Source of the DNA: Clostridiales bacterium
Lineage (GTDB): Bacteria; Bacillota; Clostridia; Oscillospirales; Oscillospiraceae
Reading direction: 5' to 3'
DNA: 64,000 bases
Assembly (NCBI GenBank): GCA_021202775.1
Contig: JAJQCJ010000004.1
Coordinates: 4,517 to 68,516, forward strand
The notes under the pieces are model-generated. The model made no database searches and was not told the DNA's origin. It saw nothing but the letters and a program-made list of their open reading frames with translations. The translations under genes and the position numbers were made by a program. Of the stretch, positions 21,210 through 55,300 are shown piece after piece. Numbering within the stretch: position 1 is the stretch's first letter; each line of letters begins with the position of its first letter.

Positions 21210-23132
21210 ATGAAAAGAACAATGAACCTGAATCAATCCTGGCAGTTCACCGGGAAGGACGGCGTCACTGTACCGGTGGACGTTCCCCACACCTGGAACA
21301 ACATCGACGGACAGGACGGTGGGAACGACTACTACCGGGGCACCTGTGTCTATGAAAAACAGTTCCCCGCACCGGACTATGACCCGGCCACCGAACGGGT
21401 CTATCTGGAGTTCCGGGGGGTCAACGCCTCGGCGGAGGTCATTTTGAACGGGGCCACCGTGATGACCCACGACGGCGGCTACTCCACCTTCCGGGCGGAC
21501 GTGACCGACGTGCTGAAGGCGGACAACGCCCTCACCGTCAAGGCGGACAACAGCGTCAACGACCGGGTCTACCCCCAGAAGGCGGACTTCACCTTTTACG
21601 GCGGCATTTACCGGGATGTGCTGCTGCGGGTGGTGAACAAAGTTCACTTCGACCTGGACTACTTCGGCGGCGAAGGGCTGCAGGTCACCCCCAAGGTGGA
21701 CGGCGTCAACGGCAAGGTGCAGGTCAAAACCTGGCATAACGGCGAAAACGCCGCCGTGTCCGTCCGGCTGCTGGACGGTGCGGGGGCCGAGGTGGCCTCC
21801 GGCGCAGGGGATGACGTGACCCTGACCATCCCCTCCGTCCACCTGTGGAACGGGGTGAAGGACCCCTACCTCTATACGGCGGTGGCCACCCTGACGGTGG
21901 ACGGCCAGGCGGTGGACGAGGTCAGCGCCCGCTTCGGCGTGCGCACCTGCCGGGTGGACCCCAAGGAGGGCTTCTTCCTGAACGGCAAATCCTATCCCCT
22001 CCGGGGCGTCAGCCGCCACCAGGACTGGAAGGGCATCGGCAACGCCCTGACGAAACAACATCACGAGACGGACATGGCCATCATCCGGGAGATGGGGGTC
22101 AACACCATCCGTCTGGCCCACTATCAGCATGACCAGTACTTCTATGACCTGTGCGACCAGTACGGCATGGTGGTCTGGGCGGAGATCCCCTACATTTCGG
22201 AGCATATGCCCAACGGCCGGGCCAACACCATCAGCCAGATGACCGAGCTGATCGTGCAGAATTACAACCATCCCTCCATCGTCTGCTGGGGCGTCTCCAA
22301 TGAGATCACCATCAGCACCAAGGACAAGGCGGATATGCTGGACAACCACCATGTTCTGAATGACCTGTGCCACAAGATGGACCCCACCCGCTTCACCACC
22401 CTGGCCTGCTACGCCATGTGCGGCCCCTTCAACAAGGTGGCCCACATCACCGACGTGGTCAGCTGGAACCTGTATCTGGGCTGGTATGTGCCGGGCCTGT
22501 TCCTGAACGACCTGTGGATCGACTTCTTCCACTGGAAGTATCCCAACCGCTGCCTGGGCTATTCGGAGTACGGCTGCGAGGCCATGCCCAACCTCCACAG
22601 CGACCATCCCAAGCGGGGCGACCAGTCCGAGGAATATCAGGCCATCTACCACGAGTATATGCTGAAATGCTTCGAGAAGCGGCCCTTCATGTGGGCCACC
22701 CACGTCTGGAATATGTTCGACTTCGCGGCGGACGCCCGGGACCAGGGCGGCGAGCCGGGGATGAACCACAAGGGCCTCGTCACCTTTGACCGCAAGACGA
22801 AGAAGGACAGCTTCTACCTCTACAAAGCCTACTGGAGTGATGAGCCCTTCGTCCACATCTGCGGCAAGCGGCAGGAGGACCGGGTGGGCGGCCAAACCGA
22901 GCTGAAGGTCTACTCCAACCAGCCGAAGGTTGTCCTCTATGTGGGGGACAAGCAGATCTCCGAGGCCCAGGGGGACAAGATTTTCCGCTTCACCGTGCCC
23001 ATGGACGGAGACATTTCCGTTCGCGTGGTGGCCGGGGCCTGCGAGGACACCGCCGCCTTCCACAAGGTGGACACCCCCAACCCCCGTTACAAGCTCCAGG
23101 CCGGGGACGGCAACGGCGGGAACTGGGTGTAA
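21210..23132 (+). CDS. glycoside hydrolase family 2 protein (beta-galactosidase / beta-glucuronidase-like)
   Basis: ATG at 21210 (MKRTMNLNQSWQFTGKDG..), 640 aa. The GH2 sugar-binding, Ig-like and TIM-barrel blocks are present (HTWNNIDGQDGGNDYYRG, NTIRLAHYQH, VWAEIPY, WGVSNEI, GYSEYGCEA). Confidence 0.85.
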   Translation: MKRTMNLNQSWQFTGKDGVTVPVDVPHTWNNIDGQDGGNDYYRGTCVYEKQFPAPDYDPATERVYLEFRGVNASAEVILNGATVMTHDGGYSTFRADVTDVLKADNALTVKADNSVNDRVYPQKADFTFYGGIYRDVLLRVVNKVHFDLDYFGGEGLQVTPKVDGVNGKVQVKTWHNGENAAVSVRLLDGAGAEVASGAGDDVTLTIPSVHLWNGVKDPYLYTAVATLTVDGQAVDEVSARFGVRTCRVDPKEGFFLNGKSYPLRGVSRHQDWKGIGNALTKQHHETDMAIIREMGVNTIRLAHYQHDQYFYDLCDQYGMVVWAEIPYISEHMPNGRANTISQMTELIVQNYNHPSIVCWGVSNEITISTKDKADMLDNHHVLNDLCHKMDPTRFTTLACYAMCGPFNKVAHITDVVSWNLYLGWYVPGLFLNDLWIDFFHWKYPNRCLGYSEYGCEAMPNLHSDHPKRGDQSEEYQAIYHEYMLKCFEKRPFMWATHVWNMFDFAADARDQGGEPGMNHKGLVTFDRKTKKDSFYLYKAYWSDEPFVHICGKRQEDRVGGQTELKVYSNQPKVVLYVGDKQISEAQGDKIFRFTVPMDGDISVRVVAGACEDTAAFHKVDTPNPRYKLQAGDGNGGNWV

Positions 23133-49844: not shown

Positions 49845-50519
49845 TTATACCCGATCTCTGCGGCAGACTTCAATTGCCGTTCCGGAGAGAAACAGGGCGA
49901 TACCAATGAGCAATGTGAACAGAGCCAACGTGCAGGCATCGGATTGGGAGGCAAGCGCTCCCATAGAAAAGACTGAAATAACCGCAAACAGATTGTCCTG
50001 TGAGAAGAAAGCGGTCATGAAATAGTAGATCAGCGTGAGCATCATGGACACCCCGGAGCTGCGGAAAAGAATACAGATGAAATAAAATAACGCCGCAAAA
50101 AAGATACTCTGTGTGCCAATACGAAGCCATTCCTGCGCCATTCCAATCTGCACGCCCAAGCTCCAAAACCACCACGCCAGCAGCAGGAACAGCAGGGCGA
50201 TATGCAGCAGATACCATAGTATGGCAATCAGACAGCGAAGGGGAATCCCAGTTCTGTCCGGCTCATAGGCATACAGCACCTCTCTCCCGTTTCCCTCCAA
50301 TGATTCCTTTATGACAAGATAAATCCACCACACGGCACAGATCGGAATCAGCGTCTGAAACAGGTTTGTGATGGTGTAAATGCCGTCTGACACACCGAAA
50401 CGGTTTAGTATAAACCAGATGATAAGCGGCAGCAGCACAGCATCAATGAACAAGGGGATACCATACAGTACCCGTTCATTGCGGAAGGTATGGAAGATCA
50501 ATCTGAATTGTTTTTTCAT
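49845..50519 (-). CDS. ABC-2-like membrane permease (hypothetical)
   Basis: ATG at 50519 overlaps the ATPase stop (ATGA). 224 aa and about 6 TM helices. Confidence 0.65.
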   Translation of the reverse strand: MKKQFRLIFHTFRNERVLYGIPLFIDAVLLPLIIWFILNRFGVSDGIYTITNLFQTLIPICAVWWIYLVIKESLEGNGREVLYAYEPDRTGIPLRCLIAILWYLLHIALLFLLLAWWFWSLGVQIGMAQEWLRIGTQSIFFAALFYFICILFRSSGVSMMLTLIYYFMTAFFSQDNLFAVISVFSMGALASQSDACTLALFTLLIGIALFLSGTAIEVCRRDRV

Positions 50520-51358
50520 CCCAGCCCCTTTATGCGGCACAGATACCCGTCTTCAATGGTCGCTTCTTCCTGTGTTCCGTTCTGTTCCACAGGGGAAAGG
50601 ATGCGGAGAAGCCCGTTTCCGCTCTCCTTCTTTAACACAAAAAAGGGGTCCTGCAACTGATCCACCATCGTTTCCGGAACGCTGTACACCTTTCCATCTG
50701 CGATTTTGCAGATGTCCGAGCTGCTTCCGGCACCCACAAGGCTGCCATTGTTGATCAGAATGATATGGTCACAGACGGCCTCCACATCTTCCACAATATG
50801 AGTTGAGAGCAGCACAGTCTTTTCCCCCGAAAGCCTGGACAGAAGTAGCTTAAAACGAGCCCGTTCCTCCGGGTCGAGCCCCGCCGTCGGTTCATCTACA
50901 ATGATAAAATGCGGGTCGCCCAATACCGCCTGGGCGATCCCCAATCGCCTTATCATACCGCCTGACAGAGTACGAATCCTGTCATCTCTACGGTCGCTCA
51001 GATTGACCATTTCCAGGCTCTCCTCAATCATGCTCCGCTGCCTGCTCCGGGGAATCTCTTTTAGTTCTGCAAAGTAACGCAGCATTTCTGTAACGGTATA
51101 GCCGGGAAACAGGCCGAATTGCTGGGGCAGATAGCCGACACAGCGGCTGTAAGCGGTATTTCTTTCGATGCTCGTCCCGTTGTATAAAATCTGACCTTCC
51201 TGGATGGAATAGACGCCTGCCAAAGACCGGATCAGCGTCGTTTTTCCGGCCCCGTTTGGCCCCAGCAGCCCATAGATACCATGCTCCAGAGACAGGGTGA
51301 TGTTGTTCAACACCTGCTTCTTTTTGAAGCACTTGCTCAGTCCCTTGACTTCAATCAT
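50516..51358 (-). CDS. ABC transporter ATP-binding protein
   Basis: 280 aa with Walker A GPNGAGKTT, signature LSGGMIRR and Walker B FIIVDEP. Confidence 0.9.
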   Translation of the reverse strand: MIEVKGLSKCFKKKQVLNNITLSLEHGIYGLLGPNGAGKTTLIRSLAGVYSIQEGQILYNGTSIERNTAYSRCVGYLPQQFGLFPGYTVTEMLRYFAELKEIPRSRQRSMIEESLEMVNLSDRRDDRIRTLSGGMIRRLGIAQAVLGDPHFIIVDEPTAGLDPEERARFKLLLSRLSGEKTVLLSTHIVEDVEAVCDHIILINNGSLVGAGSSSDICKIADGKVYSVPETMVDQLQDPFFVLKKESGNGLLRILSPVEQNGTQEEATIEDGYLCRIKGLG

Positions 51359-53108
51359 GTTCGGCCTCCTCTGTTTGGACAGGGTGGTTTTCCATCCACT
51401 CCTGTATGCTGCGGTTCAGAACCGTCTCGTTATAGGAGTCTGTCAGGATGTGATCCTCAAAGCAAATCACGGTTGCTTCTTCATTGGCGTTGGCCTGGAG
51501 CAGCGTCACTGGGAGGCGAAACACCTGATACGAGCTGAGCGGTTCCTGCCTGTACTCCTCCAGCAGCGACACCAGTGTTTGAAAAGAGCTGGGCGCCGCA
51601 TAGGTCAGGGATTCTCCCATCACCTGATAGAGATAGGAAATCCTGTTCAGCTCCCGTTCCTCCACCAGCCCTCCGATCAATGTCACTGTCTGGGCCATTC
51701 CGGAAAACGTATGCTCGTCTGTCTCATCCAGATTTGAGAGAATGTTCAAACCCGAATCTACCGTGACGGTGAACTTCTTCGTTTCAAAGTCCGTATTCAC
51801 CTTCATGCTGCTGGAGCTGCTTTCCCACAGGGCGAGGCAGCCGGCCATCGGGTAATAGGCGAAATAACCCGGCAGGGCAATGCCCTGACTGTTGCTGTAA
51901 TACTTGCCGCCGGTTCCCTCGTAGGATATCACCATGCCGTCCACCGGCTCACAGGTCACCTCCAGATAGTCGCCCGCTCTGGTATATGGAAGGTCATTTC
52001 CCTCCTGATCTGTCACGCCGGTAACGACGTATCCATGATAAAGGGTAAACGAATAGGCGCCGTTTTCCGGACTCCCGGAGAGGGTCAGCGTGGCGGTTGC
52101 TTTCAGCCTGCGCCGGACGGAAAAATCCAGCTCATACGATTCCACCTGAAAGGCTGCCTCCTCCTCCCGAATCACAGCATCTTCGCTGTAGTGATAATAA
52201 TACCAGTCAGCGTCAAACGTCCTGGTGGTACGGGCCGCATAAGGGTCATCCTTCAGAATATAGCTGTCATTTCCCGACTGTCCATAATTCCACAGGCTGC
52301 ACAATGCAATAGCCGAACATGCGATGCATACGATGCGTCTCCCCGTGCGCTTGCCCTGCTTTGCGGAGAGCAGGCAGACACAGCCAATGCTCAAAACAGA
52401 CAGCCAGAAAATTGCCTTGTCCCACCGATAGCCTTCCATAGGCACCCCATAGACTGCGTCCGTTACCCAGTTTAAATCAGGGGCGCAGATGGAAAACAGG
52501 TCGAACAGCGGATAGGCGTCGATTTGAGACGAGGAGACTGCGGAAACTGCCGCCGCGAGAAACTCCCCCAGAAACGCAGCCAGAGCGGTTACCAGAAAGA
52601 TGATTCCATAAGCAACGTACCGGGTGCAGAGCCGGGCCAAAAGGACGCCAAAGAGCAGCCCGATCATCATGACAAAAAACAGGTTCAGCAGGGAGCATTT
52701 GAGCAGGTATGGAACGAGGAGTGAAAGGTCAGCCCCTTGTGTGACACAGGCGAACACGCAATAGCCAAAAATCACGGAGGTGAGCAGGACGGCCAGGATC
52801 AGCAGATCCAGCACCTGAAACCACCGGAACCGTGCCTGCCTCTGATAGTGACATACGGATTCCTCCAGACGGCAGTTCCGCTCCATAGAAAGAAATTCAT
52901 AGGCAAGGAACGCAAAGCAGAGGAAGCCTAAAATGCCGAGGTTTTGGCTGTTCGTCAGCGTCTCCGCCAGACCGTCGGTGTCGAGCCAATACAGCAAACG
53001 CTGCATGAAGGCGCAGCTGATGATTAGAACAGCCAGGTAGGAGAAAAGCAGCCTCCTGGTTCGGAAAAACAGCCTTATGCTGCTGCAAAATAATGTGTTC
53101 ATCATCAT
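51351..53108 (-). CDS. large membrane protein with about 300-aa extracytoplasmic C-terminal domain, no recognisable family
   Basis: 585 aa. The N-terminal half has about 7 TM helices and the C-terminal half is soluble and Tyr/Ser/Thr-rich. Its stop overlaps the ABC ATPase start by 8 nt. Confidence 0.65.
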   Translation of the reverse strand: MMMNTLFCSSIRLFFRTRRLLFSYLAVLIISCAFMQRLLYWLDTDGLAETLTNSQNLGILGFLCFAFLAYEFLSMERNCRLEESVCHYQRQARFRWFQVLDLLILAVLLTSVIFGYCVFACVTQGADLSLLVPYLLKCSLLNLFFVMMIGLLFGVLLARLCTRYVAYGIIFLVTALAAFLGEFLAAAVSAVSSSQIDAYPLFDLFSICAPDLNWVTDAVYGVPMEGYRWDKAIFWLSVLSIGCVCLLSAKQGKRTGRRIVCIACSAIALCSLWNYGQSGNDSYILKDDPYAARTTRTFDADWYYYHYSEDAVIREEEAAFQVESYELDFSVRRRLKATATLTLSGSPENGAYSFTLYHGYVVTGVTDQEGNDLPYTRAGDYLEVTCEPVDGMVISYEGTGGKYYSNSQGIALPGYFAYYPMAGCLALWESSSSSMKVNTDFETKKFTVTVDSGLNILSNLDETDEHTFSGMAQTVTLIGGLVEERELNRISYLYQVMGESLTYAAPSSFQTLVSLLEEYRQEPLSSYQVFRLPVTLLQANANEEATVICFEDHILTDSYNETVLNRSIQEWMENHPVQTEEAEHD

Positions 53109-53249
53109 CTTCCTCTCTGGCGTATGATTCCGGTCCGCTCACGGTATCGAAGGAAAGCTGCCATCCTCATACGCGGTCTGAATCTGTTGCTGCCGGTCAT
53201 GTAAATTTTCAAAGGCTCCACAGCCCCCTCACCTCCCTTCTGAACAGTA

Positions 53250-53272
53250 GACGCAAGTGCGGGCAGATCGTT
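53250..53272 (-). promoter_or_regulatory. ECF-sigma-type promoter (duplicate copy) in front of the membrane-protein/ABC operon
   Basis: The reverse strand reads tgtAAC-16 nt-CGTCta. It lies within a ~97-nt segment (53193-53289) that duplicates 54438-54537. Confidence 0.6.
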
Positions 53273-53282
53273 ACAGGTTTTT

Positions 53283-53320
53283 GAAAAAGAAAGCAGCCGC
53301 CTCGCATTCTGCGAGGCGGC
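53283..53320 (-). terminator. rho-independent terminator after the anti-sigma gene
   Basis: The reverse strand has a gccgcctcgca..tgcgaggcggc stem followed by tgctttcttttt. Confidence 0.6.
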
Positions 53321-53328
53321 CGCCCTGC

Positions 53329-53994
53329 CTATTGCGCATCCTTATCGTAAATCATCAGTTCGTTGCCGTCGCCGTCTATCAGGGTGATGCTGTGGTCTGC
53401 TGTGATTGGGCCGTCTAAGTGGCCCAGACCATCCGTAAAGGCCCCACATGTCAGCCTGTTATCCAGCCGCTCCTGCATGTCGTTCGGGGCGTGCTTCCGA
53501 TAACAGAGGATAAAGAGGTAGTAATCCCCCTCCTCATCTGTCTCTACGCCGGTGGCGAAAGGATACAGGTCGGTATCCAGACGGAGGACAAAGTACACCG
53601 TCCCGTCCTCCTGTACCTCACATTCCTCCACCTCCACATCGGACACGGGCAGGCGGACAAAGGTATCATAGGTATATGTCCACCAGGTCTGGTAGCCCAG
53701 CGTACCTGCCGCTGCTACAAGTGCCAAAAATACCAGCGCGAAAGCGGCTATCGCGAACCCCCGTACCGTCTGCCGGATGCCAGCCAGAACCGATTTTTTC
53801 AGGGCTGCCGCCTCCTGCTGCCGCTGCTGCACCGTCTTTTCCGACGGCGCAGGCTCCCGCATCTGCGCCAGCCTGGCCCGGCAGCGGGGGCAGTCCGCCA
53901 GATGCTCCTCTACCAGCGCCACCGTCTCCCGGCCGCAGACCTCGTCTGCGTACAGGGGCAGCAGGTCGTCCATCACATCACAGCTCAGCTTCAT
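53329..53994 (-). CDS. zf-HC2 anti-sigma factor, single-pass membrane protein
   Basis: ATG at 53994 (AAGGAGG RBS) overlaps the sigma stop (ATGA). It has the zinc motif HLADCPRC preceded by CDVMDDLLPLYADEVC, and a TM helix FAIAAFALVFLALVAAAGTLGY. Confidence 0.8.
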   Translation of the reverse strand: MKLSCDVMDDLLPLYADEVCGRETVALVEEHLADCPRCRARLAQMREPAPSEKTVQQRQQEAAALKKSVLAGIRQTVRGFAIAAFALVFLALVAAAGTLGYQTWWTYTYDTFVRLPVSDVEVEECEVQEDGTVYFVLRLDTDLYPFATGVETDEEGDYYLFILCYRKHAPNDMQERLDNRLTCGAFTDGLGHLDGPITADHSITLIDGDGNELMIYDKDAQ

Positions 53995-54479
53995 GTCGAT
54001 TCCTCCTTTAGCTTGCATCTGGCCCGGTAAAAGGTCACTCTGGCCCAGCTGTCGCTCTTGCCGAACAGCTCGCCGATGTCGGCGAAGGACAGCTCCCCGA
54101 ACACCCGAAGGGAGAACACCTCCCGATACGGCTCCGGCAGGCCATGGAGCCTGCGGTGCAGCTCCATGGCGGATTCCCGATCCAGCAGCTGTTCCTCCAG
54201 ACTCCCGGATTGGACGGACTCCGGGGCGTCCTCCAGGGAGGTGAGCCGTTTATCCCTCCGGCAGCGGCTGAGGTAGTCGTTCCGGGCGATTTGGAGCAGC
54301 CAGCTTTTCACGCTGCACTCTCCCCGAAAGCTGCCCATCTGCCGAAGGGCCTTGAAAAAGGTCTCCTGGGCGATGTCCTCCGCCAGGTGCGGATCGCCGC
54401 ACAGGGAGCAGGCAAATTGAAACACGTCCCGGAAATACCGGTCATACACATCCTCAAAGGGCTCCACAGGCTCTCTCAC
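53991..54479 (-). CDS. ECF-type RNA polymerase sigma-70 family factor
   Basis: About 160 aa with region 2 (DIAQETFFKAL) and region 4 (LSFADIGELFGKSDSWARVTFYRARCKL). The exact start is uncertain: GTG 54479 abuts the RBS, and GTG 54467 is an alternative. Confidence 0.88.
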   Translation of the reverse strand: MREPVEPFEDVYDRYFRDVFQFACSLCGDPHLAEDIAQETFFKALRQMGSFRGECSVKSWLLQIARNDYLSRCRRDKRLTSLEDAPESVQSGSLEEQLLDRESAMELHRRLHGLPEPYREVFSLRVFGELSFADIGELFGKSDSWARVTFYRARCKLKEEST

Positions 54480-54497
54480 CTCCCTTTCTGAACAGTA

Positions 54498-54520
54498 GAC
54501 GCAGCTGTGGGCAGAACGTT
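54498..54520 (-). promoter_or_regulatory. autoregulatory ECF-sigma-type promoter
   Basis: The reverse strand reads tgtAAC-16 nt-CGTCta immediately upstream of the sigma gene. Confidence 0.6.
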
Positions 54521-54724
54521 ACAACATTTTTTCAAAATGACAGCCGTATGATTCTGAATGGGCGGTGCGGCGTTCTACAAAGATGATAGATCATATAGCA
54601 GCAGAGCGAATGATGACCTCCGCCAAAAGCGGACTTTGTTCAGGGCACACTTTACCCGCTGCATTTTCGTCCTCTGGCACCATTATACCATAGATCCAGT
54701 ATCCTGTCTTTCTCTAAAAGATTG

Positions 54725-55300
54725 CTATCTCTGCGCAGCACCAGGAAATACGATGGCACCTCCATAAACGACGTCATATACGGACGGTTTTGGGTAAGTG
54801 TTCTTTTCCGGAATTTCCGGCTCCGCCAGAATCTGATCGAACCGTTCCACGGCATTCCCGACCTGCATGGCATTGACGGAAGCATAGATCATTTTCATCA
54901 GAACGGAGGTGATCACAGGCACAAAAATCAGATAAAAAATAAAGGATGCGGCAAATGCCGGATAATCGTTTATGGAACTGCCGATCCAGATCCCTATCGG
55001 GATAAAAAACAGATAGATGCCGTTCAGCGCTGCGGACAGTGCTGCGGTCATCAGCTCCTGGCTTAAGGAATACGGAATGACGGTTTTTGTATAATTCTTA
55101 ATAGAATCATACAGCCGCTTAAAGGAAAATGCGGTCTGTCGGAATGCCTTCACTACAGCGATTCCCCGGATGTACTCCACGGAAGCATTGCTCATATCCT
55201 CCAGGGAAGGCTGACAGTCCTCCATCAGCTATTTCGTCTTGTCCCCGCCGGAGGTAATGCCATATACAAGGAGCGTGAAACCAATCCACAGCATCCTTTA
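54725..55300 (-). pseudogene. type-1 ABC exporter (MsbA-like), internal transmembrane-domain fragment
   Basis: ..SNASVEYIRGIAVVKAFRQTAFSFKRLYDSIKNY..LFFIPIGIWIGS.. is the TM4-TM6 region of an exporter. It has an in-frame TAG just upstream, no ATPase domain follows, and no N-terminus is present. Confidence 0.55.

Follow-up and report, generated by a model that had tools for sequence, protein, structure and literature searches.

The DNA analysed here (the window) is a stretch of 64,000 nucleotides from contig JAJQCJ010000004.1 of a Clostridiales bacterium (Oscillospiraceae), whose own genome, G000, is a metagenome-assembled genome (MAG) of 2.52 Mb and 60.7% GC that is 95% complete and divided among 174 contigs. 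The window holds a cassette of ~4.8 kb (49845-54604) that encodes a sigma factor of the extracytoplasmic function (ECF) type, its anti-sigma factor and the components of an ATP-binding cassette (ABC) transporter; the genes, as well as both copies of a repeated segment that we call U (upstream) and D (downstream), all lie on the minus strand (Table 1). Read 5' to 3', the order is the U promoter, a leader, the sigma gene, the anti-sigma gene, a terminator, the D promoter, a small open reading frame (ORF), the gene for a 585-aa membrane protein, the ABC ATPase gene and a gene of ~224 codons. We consider it quite likely that the cassette consists of two transcription units, each placed behind a copy of one and the same promoter.

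Table 1. Features of the sigma factor/transporter cassette, listed in the direction of transcription (window coordinates).
Feature	Coordinates	Strand	Description
Upstream copy U	54438..54544	-	T/A-rich tract, ECF promoter, leader, Shine-Dalgarno sequence (SD), start, first ~10 sigma codons
U promoter core TGTAAC-N16-CGTCTA	54496..54523	-	-35 AAC, -10 CGTC; hexamers recur before related sigma genes
ECF sigma factor, 158 aa	53991..54467	-	From GTG 54467 (MEPFEDVY...); Pfam Sigma70_r2, Sigma70_r4_2
Anti-sigma factor, 221 aa	53329..53994	-	From ATG 53994; longest ORF begins 54018; Pfam zf-HC2
Intrinsic terminator after anti-sigma gene	53290..53326	-	16-17 pairs, -34.2 kcal/mol, z -4.45, then CUUUCUUUUU
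Downstream copy D	53193..53294	-	Precedes transporter operon; orthologous D in G022, G020, G021, L113, L114
D promoter core TGTAAC-N16-CGTCTA	53248..53275	-	12 hexamer positions invariant across six D copies
Small ORF (probable relic), 38 aa	53105..53221	-	Opened by copied sigma SD and start
Membrane protein, 585 aa	51351..53108	-	N-terminal helical membrane domain and C-terminal M1-aminopeptidase-like outer domain
ABC transporter ATPase, 280 aa	50516..51358	-	Pfam ABC_tran 1.5e-31; start overlaps end of 585-aa gene
Small membrane protein, presumed permease	49845..50540	-	224 aa from ATG 50519; last cassette gene

Highly similar upstream regions of ~105 nt stand before two unrelated genes of this cassette, the sigma gene and the gene for the 585-aa membrane protein, at a distance of 1.25 kb from each other. 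Local alignment of U (54544..54438) with D (53294..53193) yielded a score of 102, compared with 16.3 +/- 2.3 (maximum 26) for 500 shuffles, and in a global alignment 86 of 107 columns were identical, with five gap columns that each comprise a single base. A repeat search returned an ungapped core (53235-53282 and 54483-54530) at 83% identity and, apart from the terminator palindrome, no inverted repeats around either copy. In G000 the likeness extends through the upstream T/A tract, 12 of the 16 spacer positions, the leader, the SD, the start codon and ~10 codons. The original prediction, which had been made from the sequence alone, described two near-identical segments with a shared leader that carries GGGAGG and the beginning of the sigma gene; the alignment establishes that the segments are real and that GGGAGG, the start and the first sigma codons are common to both. 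As there are only two genomic copies, a mobile element (insertion sequence, miniature inverted-repeat transposable element or repetitive extragenic palindrome) does not fit as the carrier. The remainder of the D leader (53192-53100) held no further remnant of the sigma or anti-sigma genes (score 21, shuffles 18 +/- 2), and a candidate second partial leader copy in a related genome, G021, was rejected because its score of 25 equalled that of the best shuffle.

Both copies carry the sequence that the original prediction had singled out, tgtAAC and CGTCta separated by 16 nt, and had interpreted as ECF -35 and -10 elements. Within the window, TGTAAC-N16-CGTCTA has two matches, where 0.04 are expected. 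A search of the whole genome, which had been suggested as a check, revealed no random surplus: the motif occurs at U and D only, with 0.15 occurrences predicted from base composition. A match with N15 spacing at window position 23128 was taken as chance, for its TGTAAC takes in the TAA stop codon of a GH2 gene and it lies before a terminator hairpin. We also inspected the 41 closest sigma-encoding loci, chosen by protein similarity with the motif ignored, and found TGTAAC-N16-(G)CGTC 50-90 nt 5' of the sigma start in about a dozen of them. The motif-bearing loci in other genera (labelled Falkowella, Faecalibacterium, Gemmiger, Flavonifractor and Pseudoflavonifractor) encode related sigma factors with 45-54% identity, and only the hexamers are held in common, the spacers being unrelated. 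ECF promoters with AAC at -35 and CGTC at -10 have been experimentally defined in Bacillus subtilis (PMC5758882), and autoregulation, with targets encoded beside the sigma gene, is usual for ECF sigma factors (PMC7826278). Because the motif is unique in the genome and precedes related sigma genes with unrelated spacers, we read it as very probably the cognate promoter of this sigma factor, and the recurrence in other genera is consistent with the ECF assignment of its -35 and -10 elements. We infer that transcription from U and D, autoregulation included, depends on the sigma factor.

The sigma gene was found beside the transporter at five loci outside G000, three of them in the genomes G022, G020 and G021 and two on the metagenome contigs L113 and L114, and a D copy is present at all five. 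In each of the six D copies, the start that was copied from the sigma gene opens a small ORF, the codon at the homologous position being GTG (53221) in G000 and ATG in the other five. A 1-nt deletion common to five of the six copies places this ORF out of the sigma frame. In G000 its TGA shares bases with the first ATG of the 585-aa ORF; the third ATG (53102), 2 nt beyond this stop, is the probable true start of the membrane-protein gene and the only one of these ATG codons conserved in G020. The original prediction had called this ORF a dead stub. That it is a relic probably holds, but the seven codons assigned to it were read from the wrong GTG (53232), which lies inside the GGAGGTG of the SD and is unlikely to be a used start; the GTG at 53221, which matches the sigma start, opens an ORF of 38 codons instead. 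The corresponding ORFs of the relatives encode 38, 38, 34, 24 and 56 aa, and their sequence is not conserved. Since the small ORF has drifted in both length (24-56 aa) and sequence, we regard it as probably a relic, one that is probably translated but not conserved as a protein.

A function for the small ORF, either in translational coupling to the membrane-protein gene or as a regulatory leader peptide, has a low but real probability. All six D copies, that of the deeply diverged G021 among them, retain a start codon at the corresponding place, and the stop of the ORF falls 2 nt before the conserved ATG in G000, G022 and L113 (as ATGA with the first ATG), 14 nt before it in G020 and 16 nt before it in G021; the remaining gene junctions of the cassette are, moreover, all overlapping and coupled. 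On the other hand, the six ORFs differ in length (24, 34, 38, 38, 38 and 56 aa), the one in L114 stops 44 nt before the gene, the peptide differences are mostly amino-acid changing, and the G021 peptide is unrelated past residue 12. Further, G022 and L113 have a weakened SD (GGGGC), another frame is equally open in three genomes, and the 585-aa gene has a conserved ribosome-binding site of its own (GAGAGGAA). Coding constraint on the small ORF was rejected in view of the drift in length and sequence and the equally open second frame. The RNA from the D promoter to the operon was likewise rejected as a structured leader, because it folded no better than shuffles (z = 0.16). It is unlikely, in our estimate, that ribosomes from the copied SD and start hand over to the membrane-protein gene and that the 4.8-kb unit moves ready-wired as a sense-and-export cassette; if this were true, the duplication would have supplied the transporter, in one step, with the control of the sigma gene at the level of transcription as well as translation.

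The terminator between the two units, another element of the original prediction, is also real and is conserved in the loci examined: its hairpin folds in G020, G021 and L113, and the arms are visible in G022. Its U-tract continues into the beginning of D. A search of 52800-54900 for known RNA families gave two sub-threshold matches only, one of them on the terminator hairpin, and no sigma-70-like promoter was found in G000 between the terminator and the transporter operon. With a strong, conserved terminator after the anti-sigma gene, the transporter therefore needs a promoter of its own. Alignment of the six D copies shows no change at any of the 12 hexamer positions but variation at 9 of the 16 spacer positions. 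The extended motif is present in 10 of the 43 genomes of the genus that were scanned, and among these ten a motif copy before a non-sigma gene was seen only in the four that have the transporter; of the genomes that carry the motif only once, those covered by the protein search yielded no homolog of the 585-aa protein. Because the terminator is conserved, a sigma-70-like promoter is missing, the hexamers are invariant and D and the transporter co-occur, the D copy looks functionally needed for the transporter. The alternative, that D is a decayed and silent relic and the transporter owes its expression to another promoter or to read-through that begins at the sigma promoter, has in its favor that intrinsic terminators are rarely 100% efficient. 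It is nevertheless very unlikely, given a strong and conserved terminator directly upstream, no sigma-70-like promoter ahead of the operon, and hexamers that have stayed the same in six D copies as spacer and flanks drifted.

If D is the working promoter of the transporter operon, the cassette would operate as follows. Release of the sigma factor by the anti-sigma factor would allow the holoenzyme of sigma and RNA polymerase to start at both U and D; starts at U would yield more sigma and anti-sigma factor, a positive feedback, and starts at D would turn the transporter on. We infer a regulon confined to the sigma/anti-sigma and transporter units.

The junction between terminator and D differs among the genomes. 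An extra ~50-85 nt lie there in G020 (L010 6780-6925) and G021 (L011 6105-6245). In G021 the extra stretch is flanked by direct GCTTTCTTTTT repeats, and it is missing from G000, G022 and L113; deletion between the GCTTTCTTTTT repeats would give the tighter junction of G000.

The origin of the second promoter was examined with a tree of 18 U and D copies, six of which are D copies. These six constitute one clade (ultrafast bootstrap 91, Shimodaira-Hasegawa-like approximate likelihood ratio test 84) and have characters not seen in any U, namely TTTCTTTTTCAAAAA.CTGTAAC and, in five of the six, an ATG start. The D copy of G021 is still in the sigma frame (MEILEDIYDRHL vs MEPFEDVYDRYF) and can be aligned with the sigma gene to codon ~16. 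The N-terminus of the sigma factor, MEPFEDVY, recovered relatives when used as a search pattern, and no extended promoter duplication was found at 38 more distant sigma loci. These two results point to U as the source and D as the derivative. We favor copying over convergence as the cause of the likeness, because it runs through the spacer, leader, SD, start and sigma codons. Since the D copies of all five other loci fall in one clade, the best reading would be a single duplication that is older than the split of these species and not special to G000. That the likeness stems from convergence (one sigma factor, and translation signals that are alike, shaping both segments) or from ongoing gene conversion, rather than from an old duplication, is scarcely credible: U and D must indeed bind the same holoenzyme, and G021 has one within-genome shared change (CAGGA in both copies), but the likeness covers positions on which no constraint is known, spacers are not kept from one genus to another, the sigma codons are alike though out of frame in D, and gene conversion was rejected because U/D identity is no higher within than between genomes and U and D form separate clades.

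Segmental duplication is also the origin that had been proposed in the original prediction, and the likeness beyond the hexamers, codons included, the D clade and the in-frame D of G021 all argue for it. Both copies start in the T-rich tail after a hairpin that ends ...CGGCTG, and the duplicated segment would have reached from this terminator tail into the sigma gene, as far as codon ~16 or beyond. Two routes may be envisaged: (i) unequal exchange between the two tails could have produced a tandem sigma/anti-sigma unit, from which a later deletion, with one end near codon 16 of the second sigma gene and the other at the transporter leader, removed most of the second unit, or (ii) the short segment could have been duplicated directly. 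We rate the two routes as equally possible.

Several observations weigh against this account of a duplicated promoter that serves a two-unit regulon. In G021, the sigma factor is 89% identical to that of the window and the transporter proteins are only 36-49% identical, so that a simple history with a single origin needs the additional exchange of one part in that genome. Genomic sites with looser hexamers, or with N15 or N17 spacing, do exist. The pairing of motif and sigma factor need not be one-to-one, as in G020 two sigma paralogs each follow a copy of it. Given a MAG that is 95% complete in 174 contigs, extra targets of the sigma factor could sit in missing sequence. Finally, the public sequencing runs that hold the region consist of contigs of relatives at 90-95% identity, of unknown library type, and provide no transcript ends.

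A protein-by-protein comparison of the G021 locus (L011, G021:C30, 4929-9905) with the window gave 89% identity for the sigma factor, 77% for the anti-sigma factor, 36% for the membrane protein, 49% for the ATPase and 24% for the permease. One half of the cassette seems to have been exchanged in G021, although this genome retains a D copy, which reads in the sigma frame.

The usual way to predict an ECF regulon is to search a genome for the autoregulatory -35/-10 motif; to our knowledge, how the targets acquire the motif of a sigma factor is rarely visible. Here the origin of a target promoter appears to be still legible, as a copy of the regulator's promoter that came with its ribosome-binding site and initial sigma codons and has been fixed and kept across several species. 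The cassette would thereby offer a clean natural example of regulon growth through promoter duplication, in the form of a compact two-promoter pair. Among named systems, the one nearest in gene content is the sigY-yxlCDEFG operon of B. subtilis (ECF31), in which an ECF sigma factor, negative regulators and an ABC transporter are encoded in one autoregulated operon with one promoter. Both systems have sigma and anti-sigma genes beside those for an ABC ATPase and permease, the presumed main target, and a very small regulon. Unlike sigY, the present cluster is split by a terminator, has a second promoter copy and includes an extra protein, the M1-like one of 585 aa.

Compared with sigma-M, -X, -W and -V of B. 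subtilis (PMC5758882), the system is alike in its xGxAAC element, 16-17-nt spacer and CGTC (the B. subtilis -10 element being CGTC or CGTA, in autoregulated operons), in the position of the promoter directly 5' of the sigma and anti-sigma genes, and in the combination of a region 2+4 sigma factor with a membrane zinc-finger anti-sigma factor. It differs in that the sigma factor is an ortholog of none of these proteins, scoring below the SigM and named NCBIfam cut-offs, and in that the likeness of their target promoters to the autoregulatory one is confined to the hexamers, whereas ~105 nt are shared here. An ECF group of the Firmicutes that is partly defined by neighboring ABC transporter genes, ECF258, has been described (PMC7826278, Casas-Pastor et al.); its anti-sigma factors carry DUF4179, in contrast to the zf-HC2 domain found here, where DUF4179 had no match.

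The reuse of promoters before non-homologous genes has been catalogued under the name of putative mobile promoters (Nijveen, Matus-Garcia and van Passel, PMC3575422), and Cit+ promoter capture is a case cited in that paper. The cassette resembles such cases in having highly similar upstream regions before non-homologous genes, in the rewiring of the second gene and in the donor start that is carried along. In contrast to them, it has no recognizable mobile element at the repeat edges, the copy lies 1.25 kb from its source, and the donor is the regulator's own promoter, so that the copy would create a regulon and not just raise expression. There is no new mechanism in this: the cassette would work as ECF sigma/anti-sigma switches under autoregulation do, with a tiny regulon, and, relative to known promoter reuse, only the regulator's own promoter as donor and the inclusion of the start of the donor gene set it apart.

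The sigma factor contains regions 2 and 4 only, with Pfam scores of 58 bits (Sigma70_r2) and 40.6 bits (Sigma70_r4_2) that both exceed the cut-offs, and it scores 93.4 bits against the NCBIfam model sigma70-ECF (TIGR02937; cut-off 42.9). Every named equivalog model failed: SigM_subfam (TIGR02950) gave 112.8, below the cut-off of 147.95, and SigX, SigY, SigW and SigV were all far under theirs. The nearest solved structure is that of B. subtilis SigW (E 6e-14). With only regions 2 and 4, an adjoining anti-sigma gene and an AAC/CGT-type promoter upstream, the protein belongs to the ECF (group 4) sigma factors. Its probable start is the GTG at 54467; an alternative GTG at 54479 adds 4 aa but sits within the SD. 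The ATG of the anti-sigma gene overlaps the sigma stop codon (ATGA). The anti-sigma factor scores 34.7 bits against zf-HC2 (cut-off 22.2) and has an HLADCPRC motif (H-x3-C-x2-C), one transmembrane segment and an outer domain of ~120 aa; by motif and domain it is of the zinc-containing anti-sigma (ZAS) type, with predicted zinc binding.

In most relatives a terminator-like hairpin precedes U. Because this hairpin has lost its 5' arm in G000, basal read-through into the sigma gene is possible there. Window 54682-54710 (minus strand), ~160 nt 5' of the ECF promoter, holds AAGACA-17-TATAAT, a sigma-70-like promoter whose -10 element follows a TG and which is kept in G020. The latter genome has two sigma paralogs behind the extended motif, one alone (G020:C34:5841, L106) and one in the cassette (G020:C75, L010), and cross-talk between them is possible. 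In another species, at locus L014 (JAJQEM010000080.1, 3948-5142), the sigma factor is 93% identical to that of the window and the anti-sigma factor only 45%, which indicates a far higher rate of change in the sensing part of the system than in the sigma factor. No transporter lies downstream at L014, where the next gene is convergent.

Neither Pfam nor NCBIfam has a match for the 585-aa protein, the AlphaFold model of which reached a predicted local distance difference test score of 79 and a predicted template modeling score of 0.80. In a Foldseek search, the C-terminal ~290 residues matched LTA4H (E 3e-9) and bacterial M1 peptidases (to 1e-7) over ~295 columns, the resemblance being to the N-terminal and catalytic region of M1 aminopeptidases. 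HExxH and GxMEN are absent from the sequence; as modeled, the outer domain has an M1 fold and is not a catalytic member of the family. The homolog in G020 matches residues 2-295 only and contains a TGA, so the transporter in that genome looks broken. The best NCBIfam models for the ATPase were DrrA, NodI, GldA and the lantibiotic-protection type, all below cut-off. The ATG of the small membrane protein overlaps the ATPase stop (ATGA), its full ORF being 231 aa, and no Pfam or NCBIfam model, ABC-2 membrane families included, matched either this 231-aa protein or the 585-aa protein.

Nucleotide homology with G022 (90%) spans exactly 49845-54604 and ends at both borders, the flanks being unrelated. 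The cassette lies within a patch at 47-56 kb with 47-58% GC, compared with 61% for the genome, and was found in 4 of 43 genomes of the genus. The exact borders, the GC patch and the occurrence in few genomes suggest that the cassette is an accessory unit that has probably been transferred. Elsewhere, the three-gene transporter module occurs beside unrelated pairs of ECF sigma factor and DUF4367 protein, which fits a functional link of this transporter type with ECF signaling. Distant homologs of the module stand by a different ECF sigma factor and a DUF4367 protein at L095 (2385-8576) and L115 (653-5769), in tandem at one locus and divergently at the other, and neither locus has an extended promoter duplication. 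Just 5' of the cassette, a 166-aa ORF (window 54725-55225, minus strand) looks like a gene fragment, matching the membrane domain of ABC exporters only weakly and in part (positions 173-249 of a 274-position profile).

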